From a virus (lineage: Duplodnaviria > Caudoviricetes), in IMG/VR virus record IMGVR_UViG_3300011423_000033, positions 1-24,243 of that record: a stretch of 24,243 bases of DNA; one strand, given 5' to 3'. Under the pieces are notes generated by a model. It did not search any database. It saw nothing but the letters and a program-made list of their open reading frames with translations, and had not been told where the DNA came from. A program made the translations under genes and the position numbers. Positions 4,874-24,094 of this stretch are shown here, in pieces (the stretch's first letter is position 1; the number at the start of each line of letters is the position of its first letter).

Positions 4874-5068
4874 TCAATCCAAACATGCATCCGTTCTTAT
4901 CGTCGTATTCCTAACACGCCCACCGATGAACGTATCAGTGATACGCTTCTCCGTGTTGATCACGCCACCACGGCATCGCTTGACATCATCCTCTACCCAT
5001 CTGCCACCAGTAACGCGACACCCGCTGAATAGAAGTATACACAGTATACACACAACTACACGCATCAT
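4874..5068 (-). CDS. Small predicted lipoprotein, 64 aa
   Basis: 3' part of ORF 4874..5284: MMRVVVCILCILLFSG-C is a type II signal peptide with lipobox FSGC; ATGA overlap with the upstream stop; GAGG RBS. Confidence 0.65.
   Translation of the reverse strand: MMRVVVCILCILLFSGCRVTGGRWVEDDVKRCRGGVINTEKRITDTFIGGRVRNTTIRTDACLD
5035..5049. repeat. GTATAC-N3-GTATAC dyad, copy 1 (inside the lipoprotein gene)
   Basis: GTATAC ACA GTATAC read directly from the sequence. Confidence 0.9.
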
Positions 5069-5268
5069 AGCCTCACAGGTGATACTACTCCCAACAGGCT
5101 TGCAATGATCCACACGACGACAAGTACAACCACGACGGTGATCAACACGTTGATGATCAACCCAAGTGGATGCGGCAGTGGTACGAGTGGCAACAACTGT
5201 TGAACAGCCCACAGGATTACACCTAGGACGATCAACATCAAGATGACAGATATAATCGTTCCAATCAT
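5065..5268 (-). CDS. Small two-TM membrane protein (Thivi_2564-like; holin candidate)
   Basis: Two long hydrophobic segments separated by LLPLVPLPHP; AGGAG RBS and TGATG overlap with the upstream gene. Confidence 0.65.
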   Translation of the reverse strand: MIGTIISVILMLIVLGVILWAVQQLLPLVPLPHPLGLIINVLITVVVVLVVVWIIASLLGVVSPVRL

Positions 5269-5492
5269 CACTCTCTCCTGTCAAGTCGCTTTCGTATGCT
5301 ATCGCACGTTTCGACTACCGAGAAGAACCTGCCATCTGTAGTGTAGATGACACACTGTACTGCATCCGTTACTAACTTACCTTTCGTCGTAGTAGTACTA
5401 ACAATGTGCGCCGGGTTGACATGGATAGTACGTCCATCTAGCGTCGTTAGTACAAGATACTGCACCGTCGCAATGACGATAACCTCTATCAT
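5268..5492 (-). CDS. Small FlbD/SwrD-like protein, 74 aa
   Basis: Pattern [18 protein letters not shown]...[20 protein letters not shown] resembles FlbD-family proteins (TRLNG..F.LN...IE...T.I.L.NG....V.ES); ATGA overlap with the upstream gene. Confidence 0.55.
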
Positions 5493-5869
5493 GGCGGCGG
5501 CGGATCAGGTGGTTGTCCAGCGTTAGCTTGTGCTTGTAACATGTTCACAAACGCATCCATCGTGATCTTCATCTGCGCGAGTAGTGCGTTGAAGTTAGTA
5601 GCGTTGAACTGCTGTGGTATAGAGTGTATGATAGTAGATGCTGCAACAGCGGTCACAAGCGATGCTGCTATACCTGCGTCGATACGCGTGTTAGCATCCG
5701 GCTGCGGTGTGAATGGTGGTACTACTACAGCAGGATCAGGCACATTACCTGGCACTAGCAACCATGCTTCATACTCCATGCGATCCGTGTTGAGTGGATC
5801 ATTCGGAATGTACGCATCGTCATATGTGCGTATGACTGCATCTGTGCTTGTGAGTTGATAAGCAGCCAT
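5489..5869 (-). CDS. Tail fibre-associated protein / putative assembly chaperone, 126 aa
   Basis: [24 protein letters not shown] is a motif common in small genes directly after phage fibre genes; start MAAYQL (ATG 5869) has a GAGG RBS. Confidence 0.6.
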
Positions 5870-5873
5870 TACA

Positions 5874-7142
5874 CTACATCCTCGAACTAGCGATATGATT
5901 GAAAGTGTACATACAGTTCCCCGCAACGCCCGCTGTCATAAAAAGATCATTATGTGTAGGCATTGGATTATCTTGTGTTGATGCTATGTTAGTCTCTCCT
6001 GCGGACTGACGTACTATTGCTGGTGTTGTTCTCATTGTGACAGGAAAAGCAATCCGATAAGTACCTCCATAGCCACCAGTACCAGGAGCTGAAAAGACGA
6101 AGTAAACTTGCATTCTGTGCCAATATCGCAGACACCTTCTCAACTCGTGTGCAAGATCAGGTATCTCCCACTTAGGAGGCACACCTACATTGTCTGCATC
6201 TAGATACAAGCCGACATCGAATAGCTCGAACGTGTTGTTAGTAGCAGCCATACCGTTGCTGTTAGTTGCTGTAGTTGTAACATTGCCTGCTTGCCATCCG
6301 AGCACACCATGAGAGTTCGTTCCAGCACCAAAGCTGATACTAATTATCATGGAACGCGCTTCATTGACATTCCACGTACCTATCGTATCACCGGGAATGA
6401 CAATAACTTGTTCTGTATCTGTATTAGCTTGACCTGCTGTGATCGTGAAGTTTGCTAGATAACTGCGATCTGGTGTGGTGTTTCGTATAGCAAGCGTATA
6501 AGTACCAGCAGGCCCTCTAAAGCCAAAGCGTATTATGACTTGTTTAGCTTGTGCTGTGCCCCACATGAAGTCCGCAGTAATGTTTCCTTCCATATGCTGT
6601 GATATATTTATATAGTCTCCTGCTGTTAGCGTTGTCTTTGCTGCTGCTACTACAAATCGAAGTCTATCTATTGAACCCTTTGGTGTGCGCGATTGCACGC
6701 GTTGTGTTGATACCGTACCGGGACTTGTAGAGGATAGAGCAATCCACTGATCTGCGGGATAGTATGCAAGTGTTGCAGTAGGTCCACTAAGTGTATTCCC
6801 CCACTCCTGACTAATCTGCATCGCACCGTTGACTATACGATTGCGTAGTCTGCTCTCCTTCGTTGCGAAGTTGCTAGTATCAACAGCAGGCACAGAGCTA
6901 GTAGCTACCCACTGCGTAGTGCTCACATCCTTGTAGTTGATAAACAACACACCGCTATCAGTGTCCCACCATAGTGCGTTAACTGGCGCACCTACTGGCG
7001 CACTATCTTGTGCATAGAACGCAGGCGGCGCTAACACTGTAGTCCACACAGTGCCGTTCCATGTGTACTGCGGAACACCAGCTACGGCAGGATTAGGCCA
7101 CAGTGTACCTATCGTGGGTGAAGGAGGGAAGTTGATGCCCAT
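5874..7142 (-). CDS. Tail fibre / receptor-binding protein 3, 422 aa
   Basis: N-terminal FPPSP..GTL....AVAG.PQY.WNGT.W module, [11 protein letters not shown] module, then an [12 protein letters not shown]...ELRRCLRYW...FPVTMRTTP body typical of phage fibre proteins. Start MGINF at 7142 (TAG-CT-ATG junction). Confidence 0.75.
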
Positions 7143-7144
7143 AG

Positions 7145-7879
7145 CTACAGCCACTCCAAACTGATGTAACTACCATTAGCCCAGATACCGCCAGATGTAG
7201 CCAGCATTCGTAAAGCTAGTATACTAAGTCCTGAAGCCGGCGTGATGAAGTTGAAGTATTGACCGCTAGCTCCACCGCCTGCGTTGATCACTCCGCTATT
7301 AAATCTGCTTGTGAATTGGTAGCCAACCGCAGGCCGCGTTAGTGCGACTGTACCATCAGCCATAGCAGGAATTGTTGGATGTTCGCAGCTTGTGCAGAAC
7401 AGCATACCAGCCAACGAGTTTGTGGCGTGGTTTGCTGAGATTACGTTTGTTGATGATGCGTGTGTAAGTCCGTATAGGAGGTATGATCCAGGGCTACTTA
7501 GAAATACACCGGGAGCTACGCTTATCTGTAATAGCGAAAGAGAAACCGCAGCACTACTCGGTATTAAAACTACGCTCATTCGTAGGAGTACAGCACCGGC
7601 AGGCACTGTGAAATCAACTGTTTGTATGCCTCCTAGTGAAATGCGCTGTCTCTGTGCATCTATATACTGCTTCGGTACAGCATGTAGTGCTTGCGTAGGA
7701 TTGCCTGCTAGTGATAAGTCACCTGTCATAGCATCGCCGCTCTTACGCACATAACCAGCAGGATCAAATATAGCTGCTGTCCATTCTGTGCCGTTCCACC
7801 GATATTGCGGCGTACCTGCTACAGCAACAGCAGGATACAACGTGCCAACAGCAGGCGATGGAGGGAAGTCGAAAGCCAT
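7145..7879 (-). CDS. Tail fibre / receptor-binding protein 2, 244 aa
   Basis: N-terminal FPPSP module; YVRKSGDAMTGDLSL...PTQALHAVPKQYID fibre shaft motif; C-terminal domain paralogous to that of the upstream fibre. Start MAFDF at 7879 (TGATG overlap). Confidence 0.75.
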   Translation of the reverse strand: MAFDFPPSPAVGTLYPAVAVAGTPQYRWNGTEWTAAIFDPAGYVRKSGDAMTGDLSLAGNPTQALHAVPKQYIDAQRQRISLGGIQTVDFTVPAGAVLLRMSVVLIPSSAAVSLSLLQISVAPGVFLSSPGSYLLYGLTHASSTNVISANHATNSLAGMLFCTSCEHPTIPAMADGTVALTRPAVGYQFTSRFNSGVINAGGGASGQYFNFITPASGLSILALRMLATSGGIWANGSYISLEWL

Positions 7880-9897
7880 CACAGCCACTCCACATGTAGA
7901 TAGCTATCAGCAGCCCACGGAAAACTTCCAGCAAAGCGGAATGCTAATATATTGAGTGCAACACCAGCAGCAGCATTCTGCATAAAGTTGGTGTAGTATG
8001 CATGAAGAAGATCACCACCAGAGAAGTAACTAGTGGTGCTTTTGCAGCCGAAGAAGTGCGAGGCGTCAGGTCGCACGAGAGTAAGTAGAGCGTCAACGTG
8101 TATTGCTTGTCCTGCATTGTTGGGTGACGCCAAGTGCATGTACGACATGGGAGAACCATTCACATTAGTAATAGTAGCGCCAGAAGCTGTGTTAGCGAAA
8201 CCATATAAATTGTAATCACCGGCAGTACCTCTAAACACTCCCGGTGCCACACTCATAAATAAACTAACAGCAGTCGGTATCGACGTAGGATAAAGCATAG
8301 CTGTTAATCGTGCTTGCTTTGCACCAACGGGTACTTGTGCATCAATGGAACTAACACCGCCAAGCGGGAAGCGCTGATACCTAGGTACTTCTTGCCACGT
8401 TAAGTCTCTGCGTGCATATGTACGAGCGTCAACAGGAGCTTCAGCAGCTTTGCCGTCTGCATACAGCTTCGTAGCTGCGTGTAGATCAGCACTAGGAGCG
8501 CCGCTAAGTGTAAGCAGTCCACTCATAGCGTCGCCGCTCTTAGCAACATAAGCAGCTAGATTAGGACTAGGTATAGCAACAGCTTGCACCCATTGCTTAC
8601 TATCACCATCGTCGTACAACACATACAGCATGCCTGCATCGCTCTCCCACCAAAGAGCGCCTGCTGCTGTAGTCACGGTTGACGGTGGTGTATCCGCGAT
8701 GATTAACGATGCAGAGCCATCAACGTATTGCTTAGTAGCAACGTGATCATCCTGCGATGGTTGATTGATTACTCTAACTTGCGTGAATTGTGGTGTATCG
8801 GTAGTACCTAATCCTAGATTAGTGCGCGATGTTACAACACTTTGCACATCGCTCAAGTTGTTAGCTCTAAGCATATCGCCACTACCGGCACCACTCGCGC
8901 CAGTGTTGCCAGTGCGCGAGAATGAAACAGACAGAGCATCGCCAGTAGAGAATGCGCCTAACTTCGTAACAAACGCAACAGGCACTTGCAACCATGTGCC
9001 GTTGTCAGTCAACGCACCTATGATGTTGAAGACGACGAAGTTCTGTGGCTCGCTAGCTTCTCGTATATACAGTGTACCACGTTGATCTGGATTGGTGCTA
9101 TCATCCCATGATGCAACCCAATCACTAACGTCAGGATTGCCGGGATCGGCAGTCTGTGCGCTGACAGCTATCAACGTAGTTAGTGACCAGTTAGCACTAT
9201 TAAACTGAATATCAGCAATACCGGGATCAGCCATCGCTGTGTTGATGTCGAAGTTCCACCTAAATGCGCCCTGCGAACTACTCGCTATAAACGCGCTATC
9301 AGCAGCGTCGTCGGCTGAAGCATCAGCAGCAGCGGCGCTAGCAGCAGCATTATTAGCTGACGTGAATGCACTACTCGCACTACCGGCAGCAGCATCTGCT
9401 GCATCTGTGGCGTCACTGACTACTTCAGTAGCATCGAAGATAGTCTGCCACTCAGGGCCGTTACCTGGGAATGTACCGCCAGCAATGTGTGCAGTGGTGC
9501 ACAGGAAGTATTCATATTCATTAACAACTACAATGTCGCCTGTTGAATACGATGAACCGGGCGACCAATCGCCACGGAACACAGGCACACCGCCTAGTTG
9601 CAATGACCAGAATGTAGGATGTGCTGTACGATCATCAGCGAATGTGCCAGTTGCTCTACTAGTGTGCTGTACTAAGCAACGGTAAATCAATCCATTCGTA
9701 CCATCAAATACACGTTCGCCAATCAAGTACTCAGTACTATTTATCCACTCGCCACGAATGCCGCTCGCACCAAATTGCAAGAACATACTATCAAGCTGCG
9801 ACCAGTTAGCATACTCAAGAGTATGCCAACGCGGCGTATCGAAGTTGATCAGCTTGAAGCCGTAGTTAGGAGTATAACCACGAATGTTGGCTACCAT
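7879..9897 (-). CDS. Main tail fibre protein, about 672 aa
   Basis: N-terminal YTPNYGFKL anchor-like segment, two W-x4-Y-x2-G carbohydrate-binding-like modules, Ala-rich coiled coil, GDMLRANNLSDV..SRTNLGLG and KSGDAMSG..HAATKLYAD fibre motifs. Confidence 0.8.
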   Translation of the reverse strand: MVANIRGYTPNYGFKLINFDTPRWHTLEYANWSQLDSMFLQFGASGIRGEWINSTEYLIGERVFDGTNGLIYRCLVQHTSRATGTFADDRTAHPTFWSLQLGGVPVFRGDWSPGSSYSTGDIVVVNEYEYFLCTTAHIAGGTFPGNGPEWQTIFDATEVVSDATDAADAAAGSASSAFTSANNAAASAAAADASADDAADSAFIASSSQGAFRWNFDINTAMADPGIADIQFNSANWSLTTLIAVSAQTADPGNPDVSDWVASWDDSTNPDQRGTLYIREASEPQNFVVFNIIGALTDNGTWLQVPVAFVTKLGAFSTGDALSVSFSRTGNTGASGAGSGDMLRANNLSDVQSVVTSRTNLGLGTTDTPQFTQVRVINQPSQDDHVATKQYVDGSASLIIADTPPSTVTTAAGALWWESDAGMLYVLYDDGDSKQWVQAVAIPSPNLAAYVAKSGDAMSGLLTLSGAPSADLHAATKLYADGKAAEAPVDARTYARRDLTWQEVPRYQRFPLGGVSSIDAQVPVGAKQARLTAMLYPTSIPTAVSLFMSVAPGVFRGTAGDYNLYGFANTASGATITNVNGSPMSYMHLASPNNAGQAIHVDALLTLVRPDASHFFGCKSTTSYFSGGDLLHAYYTNFMQNAAAGVALNILAFRFAGSFPWAADSYLHVEWL

Positions 9898-9960
9898 CGC
9901 ATTGCCCACTTATTGCAAGTGGCGATGTAGCCAGTGCGACCTTCTTGTGTAGAAAGTGTG

Positions 9961-9989
9961 AAACTAGCATAAATACACAAGTTTGTCAA
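9961..9989 (-). promoter_or_regulatory. Sigma70-type internal promoter for the tail fibre module
   Basis: Minus strand reads TTGACA (9989-9984), 17 nt, TAGTTT (9966-9961), with TG-n before the -10; lies in the only ~110-bp intergenic gap of the tail region. Confidence 0.7.
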
Positions 9990-9993
9990 TAGT

Positions 9994-10008
9994 GTATACT
10001 GTGTATAC
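9994..10008. repeat. GTATAC-N3-GTATAC dyad, copy 2 (4 bp upstream of the -35 box)
   Basis: GTATAC TGT GTATAC read directly from the sequence. Confidence 0.9.
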
Positions 10009-10009
10009 A

Positions 10010-12499
10010 TCATCCGCGCACCTGTGATCCGCGCTGATACATGAACGACATACCGCTAATGCTCAATGGCTCTGTACTACCGCCACTAACACGTGTCTTG
10101 ATTATCTTAAACTTAACCGGCATCTGCCACAGCTTCTGCTCACGTGTGCGCCTACCTGCACCGTAGACTTGTTGTCCGCTGCCATAAGCGCCTGCATCAT
10201 TCGGCACGAACTCTAGCGAACGCGCAGGTGTTAGTTTACCTGTCGCAGCATTGCGATAGATGTTGTCATCAAACAGATCAAGCGTGAAACGTGCACTACC
10301 GTTGGCGTCTATGTGTACGAAGCGCAACGACTTCGTGTTCTGCCGCATACCGAAGTCACTCCACGGTAGCTCCCATGCGAACTGAATAGGCTCACCTTTA
10401 TATTCTTCCCAACTATCAGGCGATGCATTACGTGCAGCTAGAAAGTTAGCTGCCGTTGTAGTAACATTAGCGATGCACTTATACACTAACCCATCGCTGT
10501 TATCATACACGCGCTGTCCTACTGTGTACGTTTGCCCGCTAGTCCACGCGACGAAATCATACATGCCATACCAATCGCCGTGCACTTTATGATCAGGGCT
10601 ACCGTAGCGCATCATGTAGCCATCAGGTGTGAACAGGAAGGCGCGACCTTCTACTGTGCCGCAGCCACAGTTGAACAGCAGCCCTTCAGGCGTTATAAAG
10701 CGCGACCATGCGAATAACTTAAGCTGCGGCACGTAGTGATATATGTAGCCAATGCTAGCATCATTAACTGGCTGTATCTGCACAGTAGAGCCACCACCGC
10801 CGATGTCTGTCGGCGTAGTAATAGGCAGATCAACGTCGATTTGTATTAGTACGTAGTTTTCATTGAGCACGCCAACGACACGCCTGCGTCCGTTGACATC
10901 GCTCGCTAGTAGTGTGCCAAAGCCAGTAGCACCGATAATATCAATGTTATCGTTTTGCTCTAGCTGATGATCATCATGGCGCATAATCAGCGTGCGTTTA
11001 GTCGCTTCGTTAGTTGCCATATCGCTGTCGAAGTAGAACGGATCAGTCGTCAGATTACGCGGATCAACTACATCGTACTTCGGCAGATAGAAGTGCACGC
11101 ACTTGTTCTTAGCATCATAGAAGCCAAATGCATGCAAGCGCATTGTCTCTTTGCGTAATCTGCCGATGTGCTTCGACATCATGCTTTCGATGTAATTGCT
11201 AACGCGCTCAGCTTGCACGGCGTTACTAACGCTTGATAGCTTCGCACTAGGCACACCGTTGAAATCTACAAAGAACACATCGCTGCCTATCTCTACTATC
11301 GTGCGCGGCGCGTTCGTACCGAAGCCATTAAGTGTATCAACAGGGACAGGATCATGCTTAGGTTGCTCGTTATCAACTGGCACCATGTTACCATACTTAA
11401 TCATCGTCGTCGCTGTAGGCGTGATGACTAGAATAGTATCTTTGATAGTTGCAAATCCACGCACTGTTTGCTCTGGACTAGCAACAATCTTGCTCATATC
11501 AAGATCGAGCGCATTGTTGATAGCACCAGCGCTACCAGAGTAAACAACAGCAGTATCTTGCGACGAGATACGTATCGACGTTAGCCGCTCGTTAATAGGC
11601 AGCAACTCTGTATCGTGTATAGTGAAGAACCTGAATGCTGACTTACACGCATCAAACGCTGGTATGTTGACGTTAGTTGAACCATCCAGTAGTACGTCAA
11701 CTAGATTAGCCTGCGTGAAATCAATCCTCAGTGGCTTATCGCGCCCATTGCTACAGATCAGCGCACTGCCGAATATGTCGTGTGCAACCATATCCGTAGC
11801 TGACCACGCAATAGGCCCACCGGGACGTGCTGCTGTAATTGCATTGCTCCAAATGCGTTGTACAGTTTCTTCTCTATCAATGCGTAGTATCTCACCGATG
11901 CTTGTCCATAGGATGACATAGTTAGCAAAGTAACGACACTCGATAGGCTCACCACCTATTGCATGCGTGTCGCGTATCAAATTGCCCGCAGCTATATTAT
12001 CTGTTTCAGACGCAGCGCTAGTAGCACGATTGCTTACTACAATCTCAAAGTTGTTTGCATCTATAACACGTCTCACGCCATGTGTGCGATTAATCATTTC
12101 TGGCACAATGCCAGCCCACGATTTAGTCCATCCTTTGATTGTAATATGACTATTAGCAATGACGCCGTGTGCTGTCCAATTAACTACAATAACACGCTCT
12201 GTGTTGGCAACTACGTTAGTCGTAAGCATCAGGCTTACAGTCGCAGCGTTACTAGTTTCTACGCCTGCCTTCAACTTAGTCCACATCTCGTAGCCGTAGC
12301 GCGGACCTACGCGACGATCAGTATAAGTCACCATGTTGTCAAACACAGGAGAGAACTTGCTAGTCAAGTTCTGTTCACTATCAACGACGTTCAACCCGCC
12401 GCCGAAGTCTCTAATCGTAGTATTCTGTAGCTTCGCCGTAGGACGTGGCTGCTTCGGCCTTCCGAGTGGCTTCAGCGCACGTGATAACATCTGCACCAT
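10010..12499 (-). CDS. Tail tubular/nozzle protein (P22 gp10 / T7 gp12 position), about 829 aa
   Basis: Starts with the DFGGGLN motif, is beta-rich, has the expected size, and follows the adaptor gene with a TAATG overlap at 12497-12501. Confidence 0.7.
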   Translation of the reverse strand: MVQMLSRALKPLGRPKQPRPTAKLQNTTIRDFGGGLNVVDSEQNLTSKFSPVFDNMVTYTDRRVGPRYGYEMWTKLKAGVETSNAATVSLMLTTNVVANTERVIVVNWTAHGVIANSHITIKGWTKSWAGIVPEMINRTHGVRRVIDANNFEIVVSNRATSAASETDNIAAGNLIRDTHAIGGEPIECRYFANYVILWTSIGEILRIDREETVQRIWSNAITAARPGGPIAWSATDMVAHDIFGSALICSNGRDKPLRIDFTQANLVDVLLDGSTNVNIPAFDACKSAFRFFTIHDTELLPINERLTSIRISSQDTAVVYSGSAGAINNALDLDMSKIVASPEQTVRGFATIKDTILVITPTATTMIKYGNMVPVDNEQPKHDPVPVDTLNGFGTNAPRTIVEIGSDVFFVDFNGVPSAKLSSVSNAVQAERVSNYIESMMSKHIGRLRKETMRLHAFGFYDAKNKCVHFYLPKYDVVDPRNLTTDPFYFDSDMATNEATKRTLIMRHDDHQLEQNDNIDIIGATGFGTLLASDVNGRRRVVGVLNENYVLIQIDVDLPITTPTDIGGGGSTVQIQPVNDASIGYIYHYVPQLKLFAWSRFITPEGLLFNCGCGTVEGRAFLFTPDGYMMRYGSPDHKVHGDWYGMYDFVAWTSGQTYTVGQRVYDNSDGLVYKCIANVTTTAANFLAARNASPDSWEEYKGEPIQFAWELPWSDFGMRQNTKSLRFVHIDANGSARFTLDLFDDNIYRNAATGKLTPARSLEFVPNDAGAYGSGQQVYGAGRRTREQKLWQMPVKFKIIKTRVSGGSTEPLSISGMSFMYQRGSQVRG

Positions 12500-13140
12500 T
12501 ACGACCACCTATTAACAGTGCTACGCGTTGGTTGAACGCTATCCTGTGGAATGTTATGTTGCTGCCTGTTGAATTGTGCTAATGCATCTTGAAACAGCAC
12601 GCGGAATTTATCGCTCGCACCTGGGTTAGTGCCATCGTCTTCTAGAACATCCCAACACGTGCCTAGTATCAGCAACTGCGTATCTATGAATATCTGATCG
12701 CCGTCTTCTTCAAAGTCGTCAGGCTTAGTCCTGAAGCTGACCCATATCCTGCCTGTTGTAGTAGTCGGCAATATCTTAAACCACTTCGTCGTGTTAGTGC
12801 CAAACTGACGAATGCTTGGATAGTTAATGTCACCATCGCGCACGCCTAGCGGTGCCATAGGCAACGGCTTGTGTGCACCTTCCCAGAATATACTATGCAA
12901 GTCGCGGAAGTCTTTAATACGTGTTGACAAATCAGCAGTAACTAATCCAGTAGTGCCATCGAGTACAAATTCCTCTTGCCACGTTGTGTACTCAGGTATC
13001 CAATACTCACGAAACAATAGATCAAACTTATGTTGCACTGCTAGCTGTATACGCGGCTCAGCGTATATCTGCGCGTCTAATCCTTCAACTAGCGCTAGCC
13101 GCTGTAGTACTTTAGTAACAATCTGCCCGAATGTTATCAC
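12499..13140 (-). CDS. Head-tail adaptor / tail tubular protein A, about 213 aa
   Basis: GTG start at 13140 with GGAGG RBS at 13146-13150; TFGQIVTKVLQRL N-terminal helix; size and position directly before the nozzle. Confidence 0.65.
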   Translation of the reverse strand: MITFGQIVTKVLQRLALVEGLDAQIYAEPRIQLAVQHKFDLLFREYWIPEYTTWQEEFVLDGTTGLVTADLSTRIKDFRDLHSIFWEGAHKPLPMAPLGVRDGDINYPSIRQFGTNTTKWFKILPTTTTGRIWVSFRTKPDDFEEDGDQIFIDTQLLILGTCWDVLEDDGTNPGASDKFRVLFQDALAQFNRQQHNIPQDSVQPTRSTVNRWS

Positions 13141-13150
13141 AGCAACCTCC

Positions 13151-13189: not shown

Positions 13190-13215
13190 AGTTGGGGCAG
13201 TCGGTCAGTCAACAA

Positions 13216-14591: not shown

Positions 14592-14606
14592 GTATACTCC
14601 GTATAC
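14592..14606. repeat. GTATAC-N3-GTATAC dyad, copy 3 (intergenic after the MCP, over an RBS)
   Basis: GTATAC TCC GTATAC read directly from the sequence. Confidence 0.9.
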
Positions 14607-14608: not shown

Positions 14609-15559
14609 TTAGTCGTTCACTACAGCGTGAGTGCGGTATTGCTTCCACGTTGCGAACTGACATTGCGTGATGACACGCTGTCCGTAGCCGTCGATAGTCC
14701 ACGGTGCTGTCAGATCAACATTCTTCATGTTGTTGTCACCGAGGATATGCAGGCGCAGATACGTGTCGTTGAGGAAGTAGCTACGATCAACCGGGCAGCT
14801 TTCATCATAGATGATCGGCACACCGTTGTGCGACACACCGTCGAAGCCCAAGTCCATCATGCGCTTGCCGCTCGACGTGTTGTTGAGCGGAATAGTGAGC
14901 TTGCTACGCACCGCAGCACGATACAAGCGATACTGATTGCGTCCAGTGATGATAACCTTTGGACGTTCCGTACCTTGCTTGAGGTCAAGAAGCACATCAT
15001 CGTAGGCTTCCTCGATATTCGTCGCGTTAAGAGTACCCGCGAAGTCGTATGAGGAAGAACGCCACTGCACTTCCGTAGCACGATCAACACCAGCGAGCGA
15101 TCCAACAGTAGGATCGTCAGGAATAAGTAGCGCAAGTCCATTCGGATCATTGCCACCACCAAGCCCGTAGAGGTAAGCGCTGAACTTCTCTTTGATTGAG
15201 AGTTCGAGTGCTTCCAACTTACCTTGGAGTAGCTTAACAGCCGCCTGCTCACCTTTGTTCTCGTCTTCTTCCTGATTGCTGATGATTACTGTACCAGCAA
15301 TACGGCTCCAACGATATTCGAGCTTGATGAACTCTTGCGTCTGCACGACAGGCAAGCTGTCGTAATAGCTATAGCTGCCGACTGTCGGATTGCGTCCAGT
15401 CAGCAACGGGTTAGTAATGTTGTAACCGCTGCTTTCATTCTCGATGCGGTCACGTGCAAAGCACCACGCCATGAGCGCATTGCTCTGCATAGCTGCCACG
15501 ATGAGCTTCTTACGCGAACGCTCAATCGTAGTAGCCAGTACGTTCTGGAGTACAGGCAT
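14609..15559 (-). CDS. Major capsid protein (HK97 fold), 316 aa
   Basis: Follows the scaffold; motifs GSYSYYDSL, EYRWSRIAGTVIIS..EE..N.G, LYGLG..NDPNGL, GFDGVSHNGVPIIYDESCP are typical of a widespread MCP family. Confidence 0.85.
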   Translation of the reverse strand: MPVLQNVLATTIERSRKKLIVAAMQSNALMAWCFARDRIENESSGYNITNPLLTGRNPTVGSYSYYDSLPVVQTQEFIKLEYRWSRIAGTVIISNQEEDENKGEQAAVKLLQGKLEALELSIKEKFSAYLYGLGGGNDPNGLALLIPDDPTVGSLAGVDRATEVQWRSSSYDFAGTLNATNIEEAYDDVLLDLKQGTERPKVIITGRNQYRLYRAAVRSKLTIPLNNTSSGKRMMDLGFDGVSHNGVPIIYDESCPVDRSYFLNDTYLRLHILGDNNMKNVDLTAPWTIDGYGQRVITQCQFATWKQYRTHAVVND

Positions 15560-15574
15560 AGTCTGTGTGTCCTA

Positions 15575-16636: not shown

Positions 16637-16648
16637 TGTAGCCTCCTA

Positions 16649-18985
16649 TTAAGCAGCGGCACCTTGCTGCATCTGTTGTATCATCTGTGTAGCAATGTCA
16701 GCTACACTCTTGCCGCGTGCTAGTTGCACACCTAGTGATTGCTTGATTTCCGGCGGTAGACCGTCGATTAGTCCTGCTACTTGTTGCACAATTTCGGCTA
16801 TACCGTCAACATCTAGACCCCCGCCAGCGCCACCAGCACCGCCACCGGCTTGCTGCGGTGCACCCGCGCCCGATTGCGCCTGAACGCGGGCTTTTAACGC
16901 TTCCTTGACCATTTCCTGCCGACGATCAGCACCTTGTTGCTCACCTTGTTGTGCTTGCTGCTCTTGTTGAGCTTCTTCAGGCGTGGGACCGCTAGTTTCC
17001 TTGATGATACCCTTGTAGATTAGCTCCCAATCCTCCTGACGTATAACTACGTTGTCGAACGCTTGCGCGAGTACTTTGAGAGCAACAACAGCAGCGATGG
17101 GTGTTGCACGTGTGAACTGACCGATGATTTGACTAATCTGTAGCGCCTGTTCCTTCTTCGCGCGTGATGTCGGCTTGAGTGTGCTTCCACCAACGACGCG
17201 AGGGGTGAATGTGGAGCGGATTGTCTGTGCATCCATCTTCTCCCAATCAGCGGCGAATTGTTTGCCTAGTAGTATGCTTACTTCATCCTGCTCCATGAAC
17301 TGCATACACATCTGCGCAGTAAGCCATAGTACAGTGCCCACGCTATCTTCGATAGCATCCATCTTTTCATCTGCACGTGTCTGTATCTGCGACTCATAAC
17401 TCTCAATAGCTTTGTTCGTTGTGTTTGTCTTGTATTCAACACCACGTTGAACTGATGCAACTCCTGATAAGCGATCAATGGCTTCAAGTATTGGCTTCTT
17501 ATCGAAGAATTTAATTGCTTCAGCGCTAGGAGGTAGGAGAGGTCCGAGTACATCTGCTATCTTCTTGCCTTCAGGCAAATCGACGCCGATACAGTTAGTA
17601 TCCATCGTGCCAGCTATAAGCGCTTCAAGTAGTGATGTGTCTTTGAGTGAGTTCTTATCATATACTACTTTACCCGCTGCGAACTTACGCACCTTGGCCC
17701 ATTCGTTGTTGATGACGTTGACATCATCCTGTTGATCAAGGTAGTAAGTGACTTCTCCTTTAGCGTACATCGTGATTGGATCAGTATGGAACTCCATTGG
17801 AACAACGGTGAAGAATTGATCCAATGAATATGGATCATCCCACACCCAAAGTGGGTAACACCAGTCGTTGCAGTTGTAGAGTTCAACACGACGTGTGACT
17901 TTATCCCACACATATACTACCTTCGTCATCTGCGCCGCGAGAAATGAGTTTTGATCCGCATAGCCATACTTGGTGTGCTCAGCACTCGAATAACTGAATA
18001 GCTGGAAGTTGTCGGTCTGCCCTCTATCACCTTGGTCTGGCGACACTCCAGCTTTGATGACGTTAGACGGACTGAACACAGACTCCCATTCTTCACTGTT
18101 TGGCTTCTTTCGCCCAAACTTGGCACGTAGAAGTGAAGTGTACATGAGGTCTTCAATCATCACCCAATTGCAGGGACCGCTAAGGTCTAAGTCGGTTGAA
18201 GTAGGATCGACGATGATTTGATCTGGCCTGCGTACTTTCACCCACGGACCTGATGGCGTTAACATGTCGATAGTCTGCTCAAGTGCTAGCAACTTGCCTT
18301 CAATCTCTTTAATGAGCTTCTGACTATCTGCCTTCTCTAGTTGCGCGCTAAGTGATGTTATTTCTTCTAGCGCTGCTTCACTCGATTGCTCGCGTAGTGT
18401 GTAGCCAACTTCAAACCAACCGATGTTAGTTAGCGACGTGCTAACAATGTTGCGCTTCACCTTACGTTTAAGATTAAGACCGGGTGATGTTTTCTTGCTA
18501 GCTAACACGTTGACTAACTTCTCAACTACACGCGCTTTAGGTTCATCTTCTTTGTCTTCACACGTGAACTCTGCGTCGGGGTTCTTAGTAAAGAGTAGTG
18601 GAACGAGTGCGCTAACATTCGCAAACACGATATTCTCTGTGCTATTGTAAGAGCCTTGTAACGGCGTGCCTGCTGCTGAGTTGTCTTCCTCATGGCGGCT
18701 ACTCGCATTGTGCTTCGTGTGATCATGCCTGTAGTAGCGATAGGCTTCATTCCACGCGTCGGTGTTCTTGCTCATTGCCGACTTGCCCTGATCATAGCGC
18801 GAACGCCACAATGGGCCGCGATGCTTGCTAACAGGTATCTTACTCTCACCTATCATGCGATAGATAGGTTGCTGATCCTCTGGTGGCGTGTCAGGTGACA
18901 TTACACCTTCGTAGGTGTTCACGTCTTCTGCTGGACGCTCGCTAGTACGATTGTATTCTTCGCCGGGTTCATATTCACTAGCCAT
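16649..18985 (-). CDS. Portal protein (P22-like), 778 aa
   Basis: Directly after the large terminase; NIVFANVSAL.PLLF..NP, DQQDDVNVI and LSGVASVQRG...T segments; long Gln/Gly-rich C-terminal tail. Confidence 0.8.
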   Translation of the reverse strand: MASEYEPGEEYNRTSERPAEDVNTYEGVMSPDTPPEDQQPIYRMIGESKIPVSKHRGPLWRSRYDQGKSAMSKNTDAWNEAYRYYRHDHTKHNASSRHEEDNSAAGTPLQGSYNSTENIVFANVSALVPLLFTKNPDAEFTCEDKEDEPKARVVEKLVNVLASKKTSPGLNLKRKVKRNIVSTSLTNIGWFEVGYTLREQSSEAALEEITSLSAQLEKADSQKLIKEIEGKLLALEQTIDMLTPSGPWVKVRRPDQIIVDPTSTDLDLSGPCNWVMIEDLMYTSLLRAKFGRKKPNSEEWESVFSPSNVIKAGVSPDQGDRGQTDNFQLFSYSSAEHTKYGYADQNSFLAAQMTKVVYVWDKVTRRVELYNCNDWCYPLWVWDDPYSLDQFFTVVPMEFHTDPITMYAKGEVTYYLDQQDDVNVINNEWAKVRKFAAGKVVYDKNSLKDTSLLEALIAGTMDTNCIGVDLPEGKKIADVLGPLLPPSAEAIKFFDKKPILEAIDRLSGVASVQRGVEYKTNTTNKAIESYESQIQTRADEKMDAIEDSVGTVLWLTAQMCMQFMEQDEVSILLGKQFAADWEKMDAQTIRSTFTPRVVGGSTLKPTSRAKKEQALQISQIIGQFTRATPIAAVVALKVLAQAFDNVVIRQEDWELIYKGIIKETSGPTPEEAQQEQQAQQGEQQGADRRQEMVKEALKARVQAQSGAGAPQQAGGGAGGAGGGLDVDGIAEIVQQVAGLIDGLPPEIKQSLGVQLARGKSVADIATQMIQQMQQGAAA

Positions 18986-20573
18986 AGCGATGACCTCTAG
19001 GATTGTCAGCCTTCTTATCTTGCTCTTGCCACAGCATGTAGCTAGGTACGCGCTTCTCTGCGGCGATCTTATACACGCCTATATCTGGCATATCGCCTAG
19101 CAAGTACTTCGTAGTATCCATTGCGTGATCGTTACGGTCAATCGGTTTATCAATACGCTCTCCTGATGTGGATTGTTGCCAGAAATAGCCTGCAACTTCG
19201 TCGGTCCACCAATCGAGCTTAGCATTGACGAACAATCGCGGCGAACCTGCAACACGCTTGATAGGATGTAGCAGGTTACGGTTAATGTTAAGATAGCTAC
19301 CAACCTTGACGATGCCGTTGTTGATGTCACTGTTGCCTCGCTTCATGTAGATGCCGTCATCTTTGAACATGTCAGCGATTGTCTTGCCTACTGTGCGTTT
19401 GTTGACTGTTTTCCTGCCGAATATGCTAGGATCGGCGTTGATCTTGTGCATATCGCCAACATCGACGCTCCATTCTTCACGTATACGGCGTATACTTGAA
19501 ATCTGCTCGTCTAATGACATTTCTTTCTTATAAAACCCGTCGCATATGATAACATGCGACTCCGGTGTGACAAACGCGAGCATATAGCACGAAGCCTGCG
19601 CTTGTCCGTAGTCATATGCCTCAATCCAGTTCGGCACGTAGTGGCTTTCTATGTACATATCAAGTTGCGCACTAATCTCACCTTCCTGCAACAAGTGCAC
19701 GCTGCTATCGTACTGAGGATATACAAGTCCTTCGTAAGCCACCCACTTTCCAAGTAGAAAACGATCACGCTGTTGTCCTTGATACATCGTTTCGAGTGTT
19801 TGAATGAAGTCTCCACCCTCTGCCTCATGGACGTGACGAAGTTCATAGGTGCTGCCCTCTACTACGTCGATTAGTAGTTGTGGCTTGCCATCATGTAGTA
19901 TAGGCTTGCGATCTATATCGCGTGCGCAGATTAAATCATCGACAATGTAACCGCCTTGTTGATATTGCTTAAGAGGGCGCACTAATTTGGTGTAGACCCA
20001 ATTGCCTGTTGGATTACAGGTCAACATCATCCACCTTGGTCCTGTTGGTGGCATCGTTGGATCATCGCCAGAATAGCGCGCTCTCCCTCTCAAGCGGCCA
20101 AACAAGTCAAGGAAGTCCTTATATGTGATTTCAGGGTCTTCAACTTGATCCACTATCACCCAGTCGAACGTCGCGCTTAACAAATTTGAAGAACTGCTCT
20201 CCGTCTTCGTACCCTGCTGCGCGATATACCTGAAGTAGATAGTTGTACCGTTCTTCAGGTGACATATGTTGTCGCCGTTCTGACCAACTGCGAAGCTCAC
20301 TATCCAACTCGGAGGACACCATTTCTGGAACTCCTTACGTATAGTGTCGTTCAGCTTAGGATACGTCGAACGCGATATAAGACCCGTACTACCTGGATAC
20401 ATGTCACTAAGCTGGATGGCTTTAATAACCGCAGCAGTAGTTTTACCGTTGCCAAAGCCACCGCCATAGACTTGTACCTTAGCTTTGCTACGCAGGAAGC
20501 GATCCTGCAAGCTGCCTTCCTTAAGAAGCAGCTCAGGACGCTCAGCGACGTTGATAGTACGTGTACGTGCCAT
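18978..20573 (-). CDS. terL: Terminase large subunit, 531 aa
   Basis: Walker A GGGFGNGKT, Walker B-like WVIVDQVED, coupling motif LTCNP, RFLLGKW, and RNase H-like nuclease motifs YDYG, ADPS and NDHAMD. Confidence 0.92.
   Translation of the reverse strand: MARTRTINVAERPELLLKEGSLQDRFLRSKAKVQVYGGGFGNGKTTAAVIKAIQLSDMYPGSTGLISRSTYPKLNDTIRKEFQKWCPPSWIVSFAVGQNGDNICHLKNGTTIYFRYIAQQGTKTESSSSNLLSATFDWVIVDQVEDPEITYKDFLDLFGRLRGRARYSGDDPTMPPTGPRWMMLTCNPTGNWVYTKLVRPLKQYQQGGYIVDDLICARDIDRKPILHDGKPQLLIDVVEGSTYELRHVHEAEGGDFIQTLETMYQGQQRDRFLLGKWVAYEGLVYPQYDSSVHLLQEGEISAQLDMYIESHYVPNWIEAYDYGQAQASCYMLAFVTPESHVIICDGFYKKEMSLDEQISSIRRIREEWSVDVGDMHKINADPSIFGRKTVNKRTVGKTIADMFKDDGIYMKRGNSDINNGIVKVGSYLNINRNLLHPIKRVAGSPRLFVNAKLDWWTDEVAGYFWQQSTSGERIDKPIDRNDHAMDTTKYLLGDMPDIGVYKIAAEKRVPSYMLWQEQDKKADNPRGHRYG
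19481..19495. repeat. GTATAC-N3-GTATAC dyad, copy 4 (inside terL)
   Basis: GTATAC GGC GTATAC read directly from the sequence. Confidence 0.9.
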
Positions 20574-20815
20574 TACTTATTCGCGGTTGCTGCCTTCACT
20601 GCCCACATAGCTGCGACTTCATAGTGTGTCATAGCGAGTGAGTAACAACGACCTATCTCGCCGTCTTCGTGTTTGTCGTTCTCACTGTTACATATGTCGA
20701 TCAAATCGGCTGTGTGGCGTTTAATCTTGTCAACTAAGTTATCACCGCTAGGGTTGAAGCTCTCACGCACGCGCTCTGCACCGATACTGCCATGTTTTTG
20801 TTTATGTTCACCCAC
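20573..20815 (-). CDS. Acb2/Tad1-like helical-hairpin protein (putative cyclic-nucleotide sponge, anti-defence)
   Basis: FNPSG..VDKIK...ADLID...GRCYSLAMTHYEVAAMWAVKAAT matches the R-x2-SLA-x-T-x2-E-x-A-x-MWA-x-KA pattern of this family; GTG start with GGAG RBS; TAATG overlap with terL. Confidence 0.65.
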   Translation of the reverse strand: MGEHKQKHGSIGAERVRESFNPSGDNLVDKIKRHTADLIDICNSENDKHEDGEIGRCYSLAMTHYEVAAMWAVKAATANK

Positions 20816-20824
20816 TTGTAACTC

Positions 20825-21043
20825 CTATCTGATGTTTGTTTCAGCCCAACGTGTAGTGCCTGCTGCTAACGAGCGATACACAGAGCCATCAGCGGTGTTG
20901 ATGTACATCTGCGATGCGTATGCTGATGCAGTAGCAGGGAAGACTGCGCCAGTCATAGTAGGCATGTCGTAGCTAGGATCGACTTCACCGTAGAAGCCGT
21001 TAGCTTTGATACCTTGTCCGTCTTTATTCGGAACTATCGCCAT
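20825..21043 (-). CDS. Hypothetical protein, 72 aa
   Basis: GGAG upstream; overlaps the end of the previous gene; co-oriented. Confidence 0.65.
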   Translation of the reverse strand: MAIVPNKDGQGIKANGFYGEVDPSYDMPTMTGAVFPATASAYASQMYINTADGSVYRSLAAGTTRWAETNIR

Positions 21044-21698
21044 CTTTCTTCTCCACTACTTGCGATGTTATATCACGCGCATCTATATCGACTGTAGGCA
21101 TCTGCTTCGGCTGTGCTATCTCACGAATATGACGAATAACAAGCCCGCCTTCTAGTGAATGTCTATGCTCCATGACTTGTTTGGGGGAAAACCCGCCACG
21201 GTCTAGCATGTTCATCAGAACGCGAGCTTTAGTAGCTGGTCGAGTTTCTTCGTCTTCTAGTAAGTTCTCAAGTCCGTCGAGTGCGCTTGCAGATAGTGCA
21301 TCAATTCGCTTCTGTACGCTATCTGATTGCAGTGCGGCGAGATTATCTTTCAGTAGTATGTCAAGTTGCGTGAATAACTGTAGTCCCTTGATCATGTCTA
21401 CTTGAGAAATCTTCAAGCCTGTAGCTTCTGCTATCTCCGCGTCGTTGATACCGAGATTGAAGTACAACCAAACTACTCCGCAAGTTGTAACAGCCTTGCT
21501 GTCAGCAGGTAGATCAACAAGACCACGCCTAACAGCGCGGTTGTTCCTATCACGACCTCGCGTAGAAGCTGCCGACGCACTCTGGCGATGACGCGCTGTC
21601 TGCTGCTGGATAACGGCATCGGGCGACGTGTTAGGCAACATTGCCTGACCCGTTGTAGTATCAATGACAAGACCATTGGCGAGTGGAAGGTCAGGCAT
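21024..21698 (-). CDS. HTH-containing protein, probable terminase small subunit, 224 aa
   Basis: HTH GINDAEIAEATGLKISQVDMIK, followed by helical ALDGLENLL...KARVLMNMLDRGG and H.LEGGL.I segments typical of TerS; upstream of terL. Start MPDLP at 21698 overlaps the previous stop (ATGCCTGA). Confidence 0.6.
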   Translation of the reverse strand: MPDLPLANGLVIDTTTGQAMLPNTSPDAVIQQQTARHRQSASAASTRGRDRNNRAVRRGLVDLPADSKAVTTCGVVWLYFNLGINDAEIAEATGLKISQVDMIKGLQLFTQLDILLKDNLAALQSDSVQKRIDALSASALDGLENLLEDEETRPATKARVLMNMLDRGGFSPKQVMEHRHSLEGGLVIRHIREIAQPKQMPTVDIDARDITSQVVEKKDGDSSE

Positions 21699-22350
21699 TA
21701 GCTCGCTTGCTCTTTGACTTCTTGCTACCAGCACCTTGCTTGCGGAATATATCTGCAATCATCTGCTGCTGCGGATTACCGCCGCCACCTTGACGTGATT
21801 GTGGGATAGCTGGTCGTTGCTGTCTGCCAGCTTGCATGCCTGTAGGAACAGGTGCATTAGGATTGCCCACTGCACGACCCATCATTTCTGCGCTGATTAG
21901 GTCATCAATAGAGCCAGCGCTACTAGGCATCTGCCCCTGCGCTTGTGCATTAGGTGGCATCGGTCGCTGCGGCATAGCACTAGCCTCCATCGTGTTAGGT
22001 GCACTCTCGTCTGGTGCTTCTACTGGCTCACTGCCTTCTGACATAGGCTCAGCTTCTTCTACTTCTTCGCCTTCATCAACAGGAACGTCAGCAGTAGCTT
22101 CTTCATTAGGCGGTAGTGATGCAGTCTGCATACTATCTTCAGCAGCTTCATCAGGCCATTCAGCAGTCATGTCAATTAGCTCTTGCGCGTTGGTGTCTAA
22201 GCCAGCGTGCTTCATCACCTCTGCAAGTAGCTCTGGATTTTGGCCGACGACTTGCAACATCTGCGGATTTTGATTGATCTGCTGAAATAGCGCATCCATT
22301 TCTGGTGTGCCAGCGTAAGGTAGCTCCTGGCCTTCTTCTGTTTCAGGCAT
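21691..22350 (-). CDS. Acidic, largely disordered hypothetical protein, 219 aa
   Basis: E/P/A/Q/M-rich with a basic C-terminus; TAG-CT-ATG junction with the upstream gene. Confidence 0.7.
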   Translation of the reverse strand: MPETEEGQELPYAGTPEMDALFQQINQNPQMLQVVGQNPELLAEVMKHAGLDTNAQELIDMTAEWPDEAAEDSMQTASLPPNEEATADVPVDEGEEVEEAEPMSEGSEPVEAPDESAPNTMEASAMPQRPMPPNAQAQGQMPSSAGSIDDLISAEMMGRAVGNPNAPVPTGMQAGRQQRPAIPQSRQGGGGNPQQQMIADIFRKQGAGSKKSKSKRANA

Positions 22351-22352
22351 AG

Positions 22353-23591
22353 CTACTGCTCCGCTGCTTGTTGTTCTGTGAAACCACTCATAGTGCCAGC
22401 GCCAATAGCACCGCCTCCGTATAGTTTGTCGCGTATGCTAAGTAACGAAGGATCGTTCACATCGTAGATGTGTGTATCTGGATTGTTGTTGAAATGTTTG
22501 CCAGTCAATCGGCGTGTTTCATTACCGCGTGATATACTATCAACGCGACGTGTACCGGGGATACCGTAGCGAGCTAATTCTTCCATAGCGCCAGTGAGCG
22601 CTTGATTAGCTTCGCCAACGTCTAATGCTTTATGACGCGGTTGATTGATTGCGTCGTAACCTAGCAAGTCGAACAATTGCTTGCCAGTCATATTCGCGCC
22701 GTAGTGCTCATTTGCACCCATCGAGACTACAGGTCTTTCATGCATCATCTGGCTTATTGCTTCAAATATCTTTTGATCTTTAACACGCTGTCCTAGATGC
22801 ATGAAGTCTTCAGGATTAGCGTTGATAGCTACTTCATATGTATTAGGACCGGGACGTGCGCCCTGTTGATATAACGACTTAATTAGTTCTTCTTCACCTA
22901 ATGCTTTTCTTACTTCGTTGTAATTTGTATCAATGTTACGTATGTTGCTATCTAGTGCCTCACGTCCAGGCTTAATGATGTTTGCTGTTTCAGCTATAGC
23001 TCTGTTCTGATCGAATTGATTAGCGTATAGGCGTTCAGCCATCGTTCGCTCTCTATTAGAGTAAACAGGCTTACCTTCTGTGTTCTTCCAGTTGTGTAAG
23101 TAGTTCTGCCAGTGTTCACCACCGGGGCCGCCTATGTGTCTGTTCTCGATGATCGGTATAGCGCCGCCCATGTCTTTGTGTTGTTGTCCAAACTTAGTTA
23201 CTGTGTTTGGTGTAGTGTAGTAGCCACGCACGCCAGTAGCAACTTTAGGTGCTTGTTTAGCGCCGGGGAATGGTATGACATTAGCAGCACTAGCAGCTAC
23301 AGCAGCGCCAATAGCGTTGCCGTAGTCACCTTGTTGTATACCTTCGCTTATGTCTTGTAACTCGTCAAAACCTGTAGCTGTTACTGCGCCTTGTGCTATT
23401 GATTGCTGTGCTTGTTGCTGTCCGCTAGGATCAAATGAGCGCGGCATATTGCGCTCTATAATACCTTTACGTGGCGGTGCTGGTGCTATGTTAAAGCGAG
23501 GGTCGCGTGCTATTACTGCTGCCGGATTATCTAATCCTAGCATATCCTCAATGCTACGTGCGTCAGCTTCTGCGCTGAGTTCATCAGGCAT
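22353..23591 (-). CDS. 412-aa protein with a diverged ADP-ribosyltransferase-like (ART-PolyVal-type) domain
   Basis: Segments RGYYTTP..V.KF, TYEVAINANPEDF, LARYGIPGTRRVDSISRG and THIYDVNDPSLLSIRDK align by eye with the recurrent phage pattern AYHGSP..FDKF / YEV.I....FLDWD / GIPGIKYLD..SR / NYVVFD...I.I..K. Confidence 0.5.
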   Translation of the reverse strand: MPDELSAEADARSIEDMLGLDNPAAVIARDPRFNIAPAPPRKGIIERNMPRSFDPSGQQQAQQSIAQGAVTATGFDELQDISEGIQQGDYGNAIGAAVAASAANVIPFPGAKQAPKVATGVRGYYTTPNTVTKFGQQHKDMGGAIPIIENRHIGGPGGEHWQNYLHNWKNTEGKPVYSNRERTMAERLYANQFDQNRAIAETANIIKPGREALDSNIRNIDTNYNEVRKALGEEELIKSLYQQGARPGPNTYEVAINANPEDFMHLGQRVKDQKIFEAISQMMHERPVVSMGANEHYGANMTGKQLFDLLGYDAINQPRHKALDVGEANQALTGAMEELARYGIPGTRRVDSISRGNETRRLTGKHFNNNPDTHIYDVNDPSLLSIRDKLYGGGAIGAGTMSGFTEQQAAEQ

Positions 23592-23602
23592 AGTTAGTAC
23601 TA

Positions 23603-24007
23603 CTACGACTTGTTGACAGTACCCAAGAAGCCACCGCCGCTGTTGCCTGACTTCTCAACAGGATACGGATTAGGTGCCCATGTTGGTGTCATCTGTGCTT
23701 GGAACACTTCGCGGTCTTGAATAGTAGTTACACGTGGAGCGAAGATGATGTAATCAGCAAGAGGACGTTGACCACCTTGGTTCATGCCGTCAGCTTGAAT
23801 AGCTGCAACTTGCTTGAACTTCAAATCTACTTGAGACACACCAATAGCGCCAGCAGCGAGTGCGCGACCTAATTCACCGAAGTACTGACCACCTACGGAG
23901 TTTGTAAGTCTAGCAGTACTACGCATCGTAGCAGTACCTTGTAGCTGCAATGCGTGTGGCTGTGGATTGCTGATTGCGCCGTCCCATCCGCCTGCCCATG
24001 ATGGCAT
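23603..24007 (-). CDS. Hypothetical protein, first gene of the late operon, 134 aa
   Basis: Perfect AGGAGGT RBS at 24014-24020; downstream of the predicted promoter. Confidence 0.75.
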   Translation of the reverse strand: MPSWAGGWDGAISNPQPHALQLQGTATMRSTARLTNSVGGQYFGELGRALAAGAIGVSQVDLKFKQVAAIQADGMNQGGQRPLADYIIFAPRVTTIQDREVFQAQMTPTWAPNPYPVEKSGNSGGGFLGTVNKS

Positions 24008-24048
24008 AGTAGTACCTCCTATATTATAGTAATATAAGCTCTATATTG

Positions 24049-24077
24049 GCTGTAGCATATTATACGCATGTTGTCAA
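24049..24077 (-). promoter_or_regulatory. Sigma70-type promoter at the head of the morphogenesis operon
   Basis: Minus strand TTGACA (24077-24072), 17 nt, (GC)TACAGC. Shares TATTGACAA and TATGCTA at identical spacing with the 9961-9989 promoter. Confidence 0.6.
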
Positions 24078-24079
24078 TA

Positions 24080-24094
24080 GTATACAGCGTATAC
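24080..24094. repeat. GTATAC-N3-GTATAC dyad, copy 5 (2 bp upstream of the -35 box)
   Basis: GTATAC AGC GTATAC read directly from the sequence. Confidence 0.9.

Follow-up and report, generated by a model that had tools for sequence, protein, structure and literature searches.

Dispersed repressor sites, present in 18-30 copies per genome, are described for the stoperators of mycobacteriophage L5 and the operators of phiC31 in the sections of the reports devoted to them (PMC4557955, PMC4351075, PMC12266134), and the L5 stoperators are stated to block elongation away from promoters (PMC4557955). Dispersed palindromes of less certain role are also described. Mycobacteriophages of Cluster O carry a 17-bp repeat, TGTTCGG-NNN-CCGAACA, with 34 copies in Corndog and a higher density toward one genome end (PMC4351075). 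These repeats occur in intergenic and coding DNA with little orientation bias in phages reported to have no integrase, and the same account, in its part on the repeats, predicts that they are dimer-binding sites and leaves their function unexplained (PMC4351075). Microbacterium phages of Cluster EG have 8-10 copies of an 18-bp inverted repeat, with no repressor or integrase identified in the portion of the report dealing with them (PMC7302621). For plasmid RK2, the KorB operator OB is described as a 13-bp palindrome with an odd centre, which lies both near and far from promoters and mediates long-range repression (PMC11790492). Here we analyze a 24,243-nucleotide stretch of an uncultured tailed phage (IMG/VR record IMGVR_UViG_3300011423_000033, positions 1 to 24,243; the whole stretch is called the window below), in which the 15-bp sequence GTATAC-N3-GTATAC occurs five times. 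This dispersed dyad is real and is found family-wide in uncultured phages of soil and sediment.

A family-wide dyad

An exact scan of the window recovered all five copies listed in an earlier note on this DNA, together with their spacers (ACA, TGT, TCC, GGC, and AGC) and their contexts, namely two promoters, one ribosome-binding site (RBS), and two coding regions (Table 1). The pairing is far above chance, as had been claimed, since exact matches appeared in none of 100 dinucleotide shuffles. The count of lone GTATAC hexamers had to be raised from four to five, the one at 7219 having been overlooked; 10 of the 15 hexamers in the window lie inside site pairs. Palindromic hexamers as a class are strongly avoided in the window, where 30 of the 64 are absent, yet GTATAC occurs 15 times. 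Contigs from sequencing runs not flagged as the source covered four of the five sites with zero differences, and the fifth site is identical in locus L001. Because the contigs from these runs match four sites exactly, the sites are not an assembly artefact.

The window covers no more than the virion-gene arm of a podovirus of ~44 kb. Near-complete relatives measure 43.5-44.8 kb and have an early arm and a late arm running in opposite directions. A search of IMG/VR gave 119 relatives of the capsid protein, of which 80 loci were kept for the capsid-locus counts; in 79 of these 80 the protein is 92-100% identical. The exact 15-mer is present in 20 of the 80 loci. When the relatives were aligned, the outer G and C proved to be lineage-specific and the centre of the dyad fell on the N3 spacer, which ruled out the GTATAC doublet as the conserved unit. 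By this alignment the conserved unit is a single 13-bp dyad, TATAC-N3-GTATA. It was found in 13 of 15 related records, in 2-23 copies (0-1 for the reversed control), and it was the top de novo dyad in 9 of the 11 sequences tested, that is, in each one holding the core. Thus, of the proposal that the window carries sites for a dimeric or tetrameric DNA-binding protein, a selected dyad kept throughout the family stands, most simply read as a dimer-binding site, while the double GTATAC on which the proposal was built does not.

Although the arms are invariant, the spacers of 88 sites fall into 19 classes. The favoured spacer differs by lineage (TCA, AAT, ACT, AAC, or AGC), and the flanks are lineage-specific too. 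Two records without the standard core have related forms instead: G007 has nine copies of the shifted form GTATA-N5-TATAC, and G006 has five TRTAC-N3-GTAYA sites. TGTAC-N3-GTACA occurs in three copies each in L416 and L440. The drift occurs within a group of phages that share 92-100% identity in their capsid proteins. Because two coding sites occur in the window where 0.038 were expected from its proteins and codon use, we infer that the coding sites are selected at the DNA level; across the set, 60 coding sites are spread over 17 genes. An argument from rare codons was ruled out, as ATA accounts for 121 of the 379 Ile codons in the window. The sites are also not pieces copied from a longer repeat, because their flanks are no more alike than random sequences.

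The two arms differ in site density, which in five near-complete genomes is 0.44-1.11 per kb for the early arm as against 0.10-0.21 for the late arm (binomial P 0.03 to 7e-5); the early arm is 3.8-6.7 times denser. An early arm with the exact 15-mer was found on L439, where 10 copies lie in 12.7 kb with gaps of 136-2351 bp; this sequence does not overlap the window and may or may not come from a close relative of its phage. Late-arm sites occupy recurrent slots: before the first late gene, at terminase residue 360, at the capsid end, at the tail-gene end, in the lipoprotein/acetyltransferase region, and at ejection-gene junctions. Among distinct sequence types, the window included, the first-late-gene slot is filled in 10 of 19, the terminase slot in 16 of 23, the capsid-end slot in 18 of 30, and the tail-end slot in 10 of 25. 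In the window every slot is filled and there is no additional site.

Sites and predicted promoters

Two promoter forms were predicted recurrently, an early form of the CTTGCATGTG type with a good -10 box and a late form, TTGACA-N14-TGCTA. The late form seen before the fibre genes of the window (Table 1) is kept in relatives with or without an adjoining site. In both late promoters of the window the -10 box is missing the final T that early promoters carry; such a box is typical of Alphaproteobacteria, a weak hint about the host.

Intergenic DNA, which makes up 8.5% of bases, contains 46 of the 88 sites, and 23 of the 88 are at a stop codon. Among 15 early promoters, which are orthologous and not independent (G002 gave no promoter match), 10 are followed by a site within the initial ~150 nt of the transcript, 36-185 bp past the start of the -35 box (random 15%, P 1e-5), and 7 have one at most 125 bp upstream (random 12%, P 1e-3). 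For the late arm, 37 late-slot promoters were chosen by eye from 61 pattern hits and 24 hits were set aside; for 21 of the 37 the centre of a site falls 8-12, 19-21, or 40 bp upstream of TTGAC, and in one case the site is between the boxes. The abutting and between-box positions would fit a repressor. Helical phasing of the sites to the late -35 boxes was dropped, since the distances were suggestive, yet the statistic was driven by ten orthologous 12-bp cases.

From this arrangement we propose as the likeliest reading, held with about as much credence as doubt, that a dimeric protein encoded by the phage occupies the dyads and damps transcription by the host polymerase genome-wide. The dyads, up to 23 per genome, would then form a dispersed network of operators or roadblocks. 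In the early arm, protein bound 40-150 bp past strong early promoters, or flanking them, may act by blocking or looping. In the late arm, protein bound next to the -35 boxes of the two late promoters, and where genes end, may act by promoter occlusion.

That the binder would be of phage origin is suggested by the lineage-specific flanks and spacers, the shifted cores, and the tracking of motif flavour with early-arm proteins. In a Mantel test of motif flavour against protein distance, which is confounded by linkage and kinship, rho was highest for six early-arm proteins (DUF932 0.63, PolA 0.59, GHKL 0.56, c36 0.54, nuclease 0.47, and c25 0.45), lower for two other early proteins, c27 (0.38) and an HNH protein (0.27), and -0.01 to 0.25 for virion proteins (capsid 0.15, small terminase 0.15). 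A phage origin is also favoured because bacterial genomes show no excess of a common variant, GTATACTSAGTATAC: 596 Gb of prokaryote genomes yielded about 440 stretches, nearly all single, below the ~1,100 of equal-base arithmetic. No clade enrichment was apparent among the 80 bacterial loci listed, and among the 80 viral loci listed the multi-copy ones are members of this phage family.

Several observations weigh against a phage-encoded genome-wide repressor. No repressor-type protein was recognized among the conserved genes. Pfam and PHROG scans of the conserved protein clusters recognized no integrase, repressor, ParB, primase, or DnaB; the search for an integrase covered these clusters and part of the open reading frames (ORFs), and G011 and G012 have no unassigned ORF longer than 135 aa outside the tail region. 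No capsid relative was confirmed among the bacterial genomes searched. Because no integrase, repressor, or bacterial capsid relative was found, there is no known lysogenic state to explain a global repressor. Early promoter cores are seldom covered, as a site reaches into only 2 of the 15, and in both cases it is a 1-mismatch site. Of the 37 late-slot promoters, 15 of the same form have no site, which also argues against an obligate late activator. Many sites lie deep inside genes, distant from any predicted promoter. The orientation of early-arm spacers to transcription is mixed (AAT 17:12, ACT 8:9, and TCA 5:4), and only AAC (16:3) and AGC (6:0) are skewed. The Mantel signal is itself confounded, most sites being in the early arm. 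Late slots are more even than random placement (P 0.02 in G011, 0.03 in G009, and 0.09 in G012; 0.001 for pooled slots), and only 2 of 1140 gene-end triples in the window reach a coefficient of variation (CV) of 0.15 or less. Finally, the authors of the Cluster O study, in their discussion of comparable repeats, judged promoter regulation unlikely (PMC4351075).

Candidate binding proteins

The early arm of the relatives encodes the orphan c27, DUF932, c33, c34, a GHKL-like protein, the HNH protein, three coiled-coil proteins, a protein that we take to be nuclease-like, Sak4, an SSB-like DUF669 protein, c20, a Dda-like helicase, and a UDG-PolA protein. The last is a family A DNA polymerase with an N-terminal uracil-DNA-glycosylase-like domain (L084:1531-4056 in G002, and orthologues), and the Dda-like helicase and Sak4 are its neighbours. 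Judged by predicted structures, the HNH protein is the only core early protein with a recognizable DNA-binding build. The front half of its model matches I-HmuI (Z 6.6, root-mean-square deviation (rmsd) 2.7, 82 residues) and its C-terminus matches a helix-turn-helix (HTH) domain (Z 7.1, rmsd 2.4, 48 residues), both with middling scores and on a model with a predicted local distance difference test (pLDDT) value of 65. The gene is syntenic, none of the 10 records checked across its position lacked it, and the catalytic motif was intact in all 35 copies.

With such a fixed HNH-HTH gene, universal where checkable, the dyads may alternatively be targets of the endonuclease, whose nicks would prime strand-displacement synthesis by PolA, Dda, and SSB, promote recombination, or mark virion DNA. 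This would explain the intragenic sites, and it agrees with the finding that no primase or DnaB-type helicase was recognized among the conserved genes. We nevertheless consider it unlikely. The motif flavour tracks the HNH protein poorly, G005 and G006 share near-identical HNH beta-hairpins, yet their cores differ, and dyads are found even within the HNH gene. The idea would not predict the clustering at promoters, and the phage nick sites described for T5, tf, and phiKMV are asymmetric, which also counts against it. An elaborated form, in which the dyads are a self-marking lattice cut by a domesticated HNH-HTH nickase, would provide many nick-primed origins, ~1 per kb in the early arm and 1 per 4-5 kb in the late arm, and lineage drift would confer specificity for the phage's own DNA; we regard this form as quite unlikely.

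For a dimer acting as a genome-wide brake, the HNH-HTH protein and the orphan c27 are the candidate binders. c27 is encoded by the first early gene, which has sites on either side; its sequence diverges quickly and includes a lysine-rich tail. It gave no fold match (model pLDDT 79), no Pfam family was found among the 22 of 52 relatives scanned, and its atlas neighbours are unnamed. The likely terminase small subunit (Table 1) is the sole recognizable DNA-binding candidate within the window, and its link to motif variation is weak. c33 and the GHKL-like protein were ruled out because they are absent from the site-rich L419 (16 sites) and G011 (23 sites), and c40, c41, c47, and a small HTH-like ORF of G011 were discarded for their patchy occurrence. 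DUF932 was rejected as a general dyad binder, since distant homologues in 25 unrelated contigs of at least 3 kb are accompanied by zero exact cores; no solved structural relative of it was found, and c20 had no atlas match at 0.9 or more. A scan for residue-to-motif association gave no decisive column and had no calibrated null.

Two side observations concern these proteins. L476, an unrelated contig bearing DUF932, has 24 copies of another dyad (GTTCC-N9), possibly a repeat array. c33 (L094:997-1944 in G005) is a 316-aa early protein with a conserved C-terminal HFRHY...WIEPHYRGDP; a precomputed PF26125 hit on 1 of 57 relatives was not reproduced by the Pfam scan. c33 may resemble AcrVA2-like proteins.

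Spacing of the sites and remaining alternatives

The earlier note had emphasized the regular placement of the sites. Its intervals of 4959, 4598, 4889, and 4599 bp were reproduced and have a CV of 0.040 (P = 7e-5 against uniform placement, a post hoc value from one window out of many). The extrapolated position at 100-450 is indeed empty, and no copy with 1 mismatch, whether to the 15-mer or to the 13-bp core, exists anywhere in the window. The periodicity, however, fails genome-wide in the relatives, where gaps in the early arm are irregular (about 0.1 to 5 kb in near-complete genomes), whole-genome gaps have a CV of 0.87-1.7, and the longest site-free stretches measure 7-21 kb. Nor does spacing prevail over gene context, as had been supposed, because late-arm positions track genes and are optional. 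The first late interval is 3.3-3.6 kb in most relatives versus 4.6 kb in the window, where a 412-aa gene sits. Late-arm gaps in relatives are often near 4.6-5.0 or 9.4-9.9 kb, and additional late sites give gaps of 1.4-2.5 kb. A strict rule was not upheld, and what survived was the weak residue of late slots more even than random. This evenness is a hint only, because the recurring gaps reflect one inherited gene layout and are not independent samples. The even spacing in the window arises because optional late slots lie ~4-5 kb apart and all are filled in this lineage.

A strict ruler rule is largely refuted. The ruler idea of the earlier note, at ~1 site per 4.7 kb and serving genome organization, packaging, or ejection, would account for the low CV of the window, the rarity of comparable gene-end triples, the residual evenness of late slots, and the recurrent late gaps. 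We find it distinctly improbable, as early gaps are irregular, gaps of 7-21 kb are tolerated, late slots are optional, and the gaps amount to inherited gene layout.

A regulator of the host, such as a repressor of the GntR or SOS type, might instead bind the dyads and so couple the phage to the state of its host. The lack of a recognized phage repressor is in its favour, and the GntR/FadR protein DipR is described, in the pertinent part of its report, as binding a GTATAC palindrome (PMC11472048). The conserved unit differs from GTATAC itself, however, the motif drifts among close phages, and the scanned variant shows no clade enrichment among the bacterial loci listed, so that we hold this explanation highly doubtful. 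Very improbable is a role as RNA or single-strand hairpins for processing or translation, for although each site can be folded into a 6-bp stem with a 3-nt loop and many sites lie at stop codons or RBSs, the hairpin is weak at -2.7 kcal/mol, its stem keeps one sequence and shows no covariation, the loops occur in both orientations, and two window sites lie upstream of -35 boxes, beyond the predicted downstream transcript.

Other features of the window and its relatives

All genes assigned in the window are on the minus strand and encode terminase, portal, capsid, tail, and fibre proteins, an acetyltransferase, and probable ejection proteins (Table 1); names of genes without a PHROG match were taken from gene order. 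The best matches among cultured phages are distant, with less than 30% identity for the capsid protein, less than 27% for the polymerase, and 27% for the terminase. The sequencing runs that contain the stretch come from freshwater sediment, groundwater, and soil, and no RNA dataset is among the runs listed.

An 80-aa ORF at 20573-20815, just before the terminase gene, has a Pfam Acb2/Tad1 hairpin domain (E 6e-12) and is likely an anti-defence gene; in relatives, its homologue is placed elsewhere. A pattern scan recovered the GC hairpin, which lies upstream of the first late promoter, in 13 of the 16 sequences (for example at G001 1661, G003 6341, G005 35213, G007 1168, and G013 4495). Its loop on one strand is GAA, GCA, GAAA, GATA, or similar, with no clear T-run. 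Possible roles are transcription termination, single-strand priming, and the marking of DNA for packaging.

Table 1. Dyad sites and neighbouring features of the window
Feature	Position	Strand	Remarks
Dyad site 1	5035..5049	.	In signal-peptide codons (CILCIL) of the 64-aa lipoprotein-like ORF
Dyad site 2	9994..10008	.	1 nt past stop codon of the 832-aa tail gene; centre 12 bp upstream of TTGACA box
Dyad site 3	14592..14606	.	2 nt past major capsid stop codon; spacer provides GGAG before next ATG
Dyad site 4	19481..19495	.	In terminase large subunit, ~residue 360, SIRRIR
Dyad site 5	24080..24094	.	Between GC hairpin and TTGACA box of first late gene; centre 10 bp upstream of box
Lipoprotein-like ORF, 64 aa	4874..5068	-	Lipobox-like LFSGC; hosts site 1; no Pfam match
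Predicted sigma70-type late promoter before fibre genes	9961..9989	-	Consensus match only; missed by generic promoter scan
832-aa tail gene	10010..12508	-	Tail tubular protein B by position; no PHROG match, name inferred from gene order
Major capsid protein	14609..15559	-	phrog_9953, E 4e-54
Terminase large subunit	18978..20573	-	phrog_10250, E 1e-14
Likely terminase small subunit	21024..21758	-	HTH-like stretch; no Pfam/PHROG match
412-aa gene without family match	22353-23591 (window)		Otherwise in 1 of 10 other clustered records (G008)
First late-arm gene, 134 aa	23603..24007	-	No function assigned
Predicted late promoter of virion-gene arm	24049..24077	-	Consensus match only
GC hairpin, 7 bp, 3-4 nt loop	24097..24113	.	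Upstream of first late gene; kept in relatives, changes on both arms

Significance and comparison with known systems

This phage family is an independent case of the kind of repeat left unexplained in the Cluster O account (PMC4351075), and it offers dozens of genomes, shifted variants, and few core candidates. With so short a list of candidates, the question of the binder is directly testable with synthetic genes and oligonucleotides. A repressor would mean a genome-wide brake in a seemingly non-integrating phage and could bear on persistence in slow-growing soil hosts, and an HNH nickase would mean a new scheme of replication or self-recognition.

The earlier note knew of no described system with this motif. 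As to the sequence, this stands, since we did not find the motif described for any phage in a literature search covering mainly the main text of open papers. As to the architecture, it does not, since dispersed dyads of this type are described for the Cluster O phages (PMC4351075). Among the systems introduced above, KorB OB resembles the element in being a 13-bp odd-centred dyad dispersed near and far from promoters; KorB, however, is a clamp of the ParB family, and the Pfam and PHROG scans of conserved genes gave no ParB match here. The repeats of Cluster EG, as far as they are described, are intergenic and associated with gene starts and have a 2-bp spacer, whereas about half of the sites in the present family are coding. 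The mode of the L5 stoperators serves, by analogy, as our working model. The published stoperators are nevertheless asymmetric and oriented with transcription, a monomer binds them, and their phage is temperate and has a known repressor, whereas the present sites are symmetric, appear mostly unoriented, and were found in genomes with no recognized repressor or integrase.

The Cluster O repeats, so far as their published description allows comparison, share invariant arms, a variable 3-bp spacer, many copies, one denser arm, and a mixture of intergenic and coding sites with the present element. The two differ in sequence, host, and virion type and in arm length, which is 5-6 bp here and 7 bp there, and lineage drift, fixed short distances to late -35 boxes, and enrichment downstream of early promoters are features of the present family. 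Judged by this shared architecture, TATAC-N3-GTATA is the same kind of element as the Cluster O repeats in another phage family.

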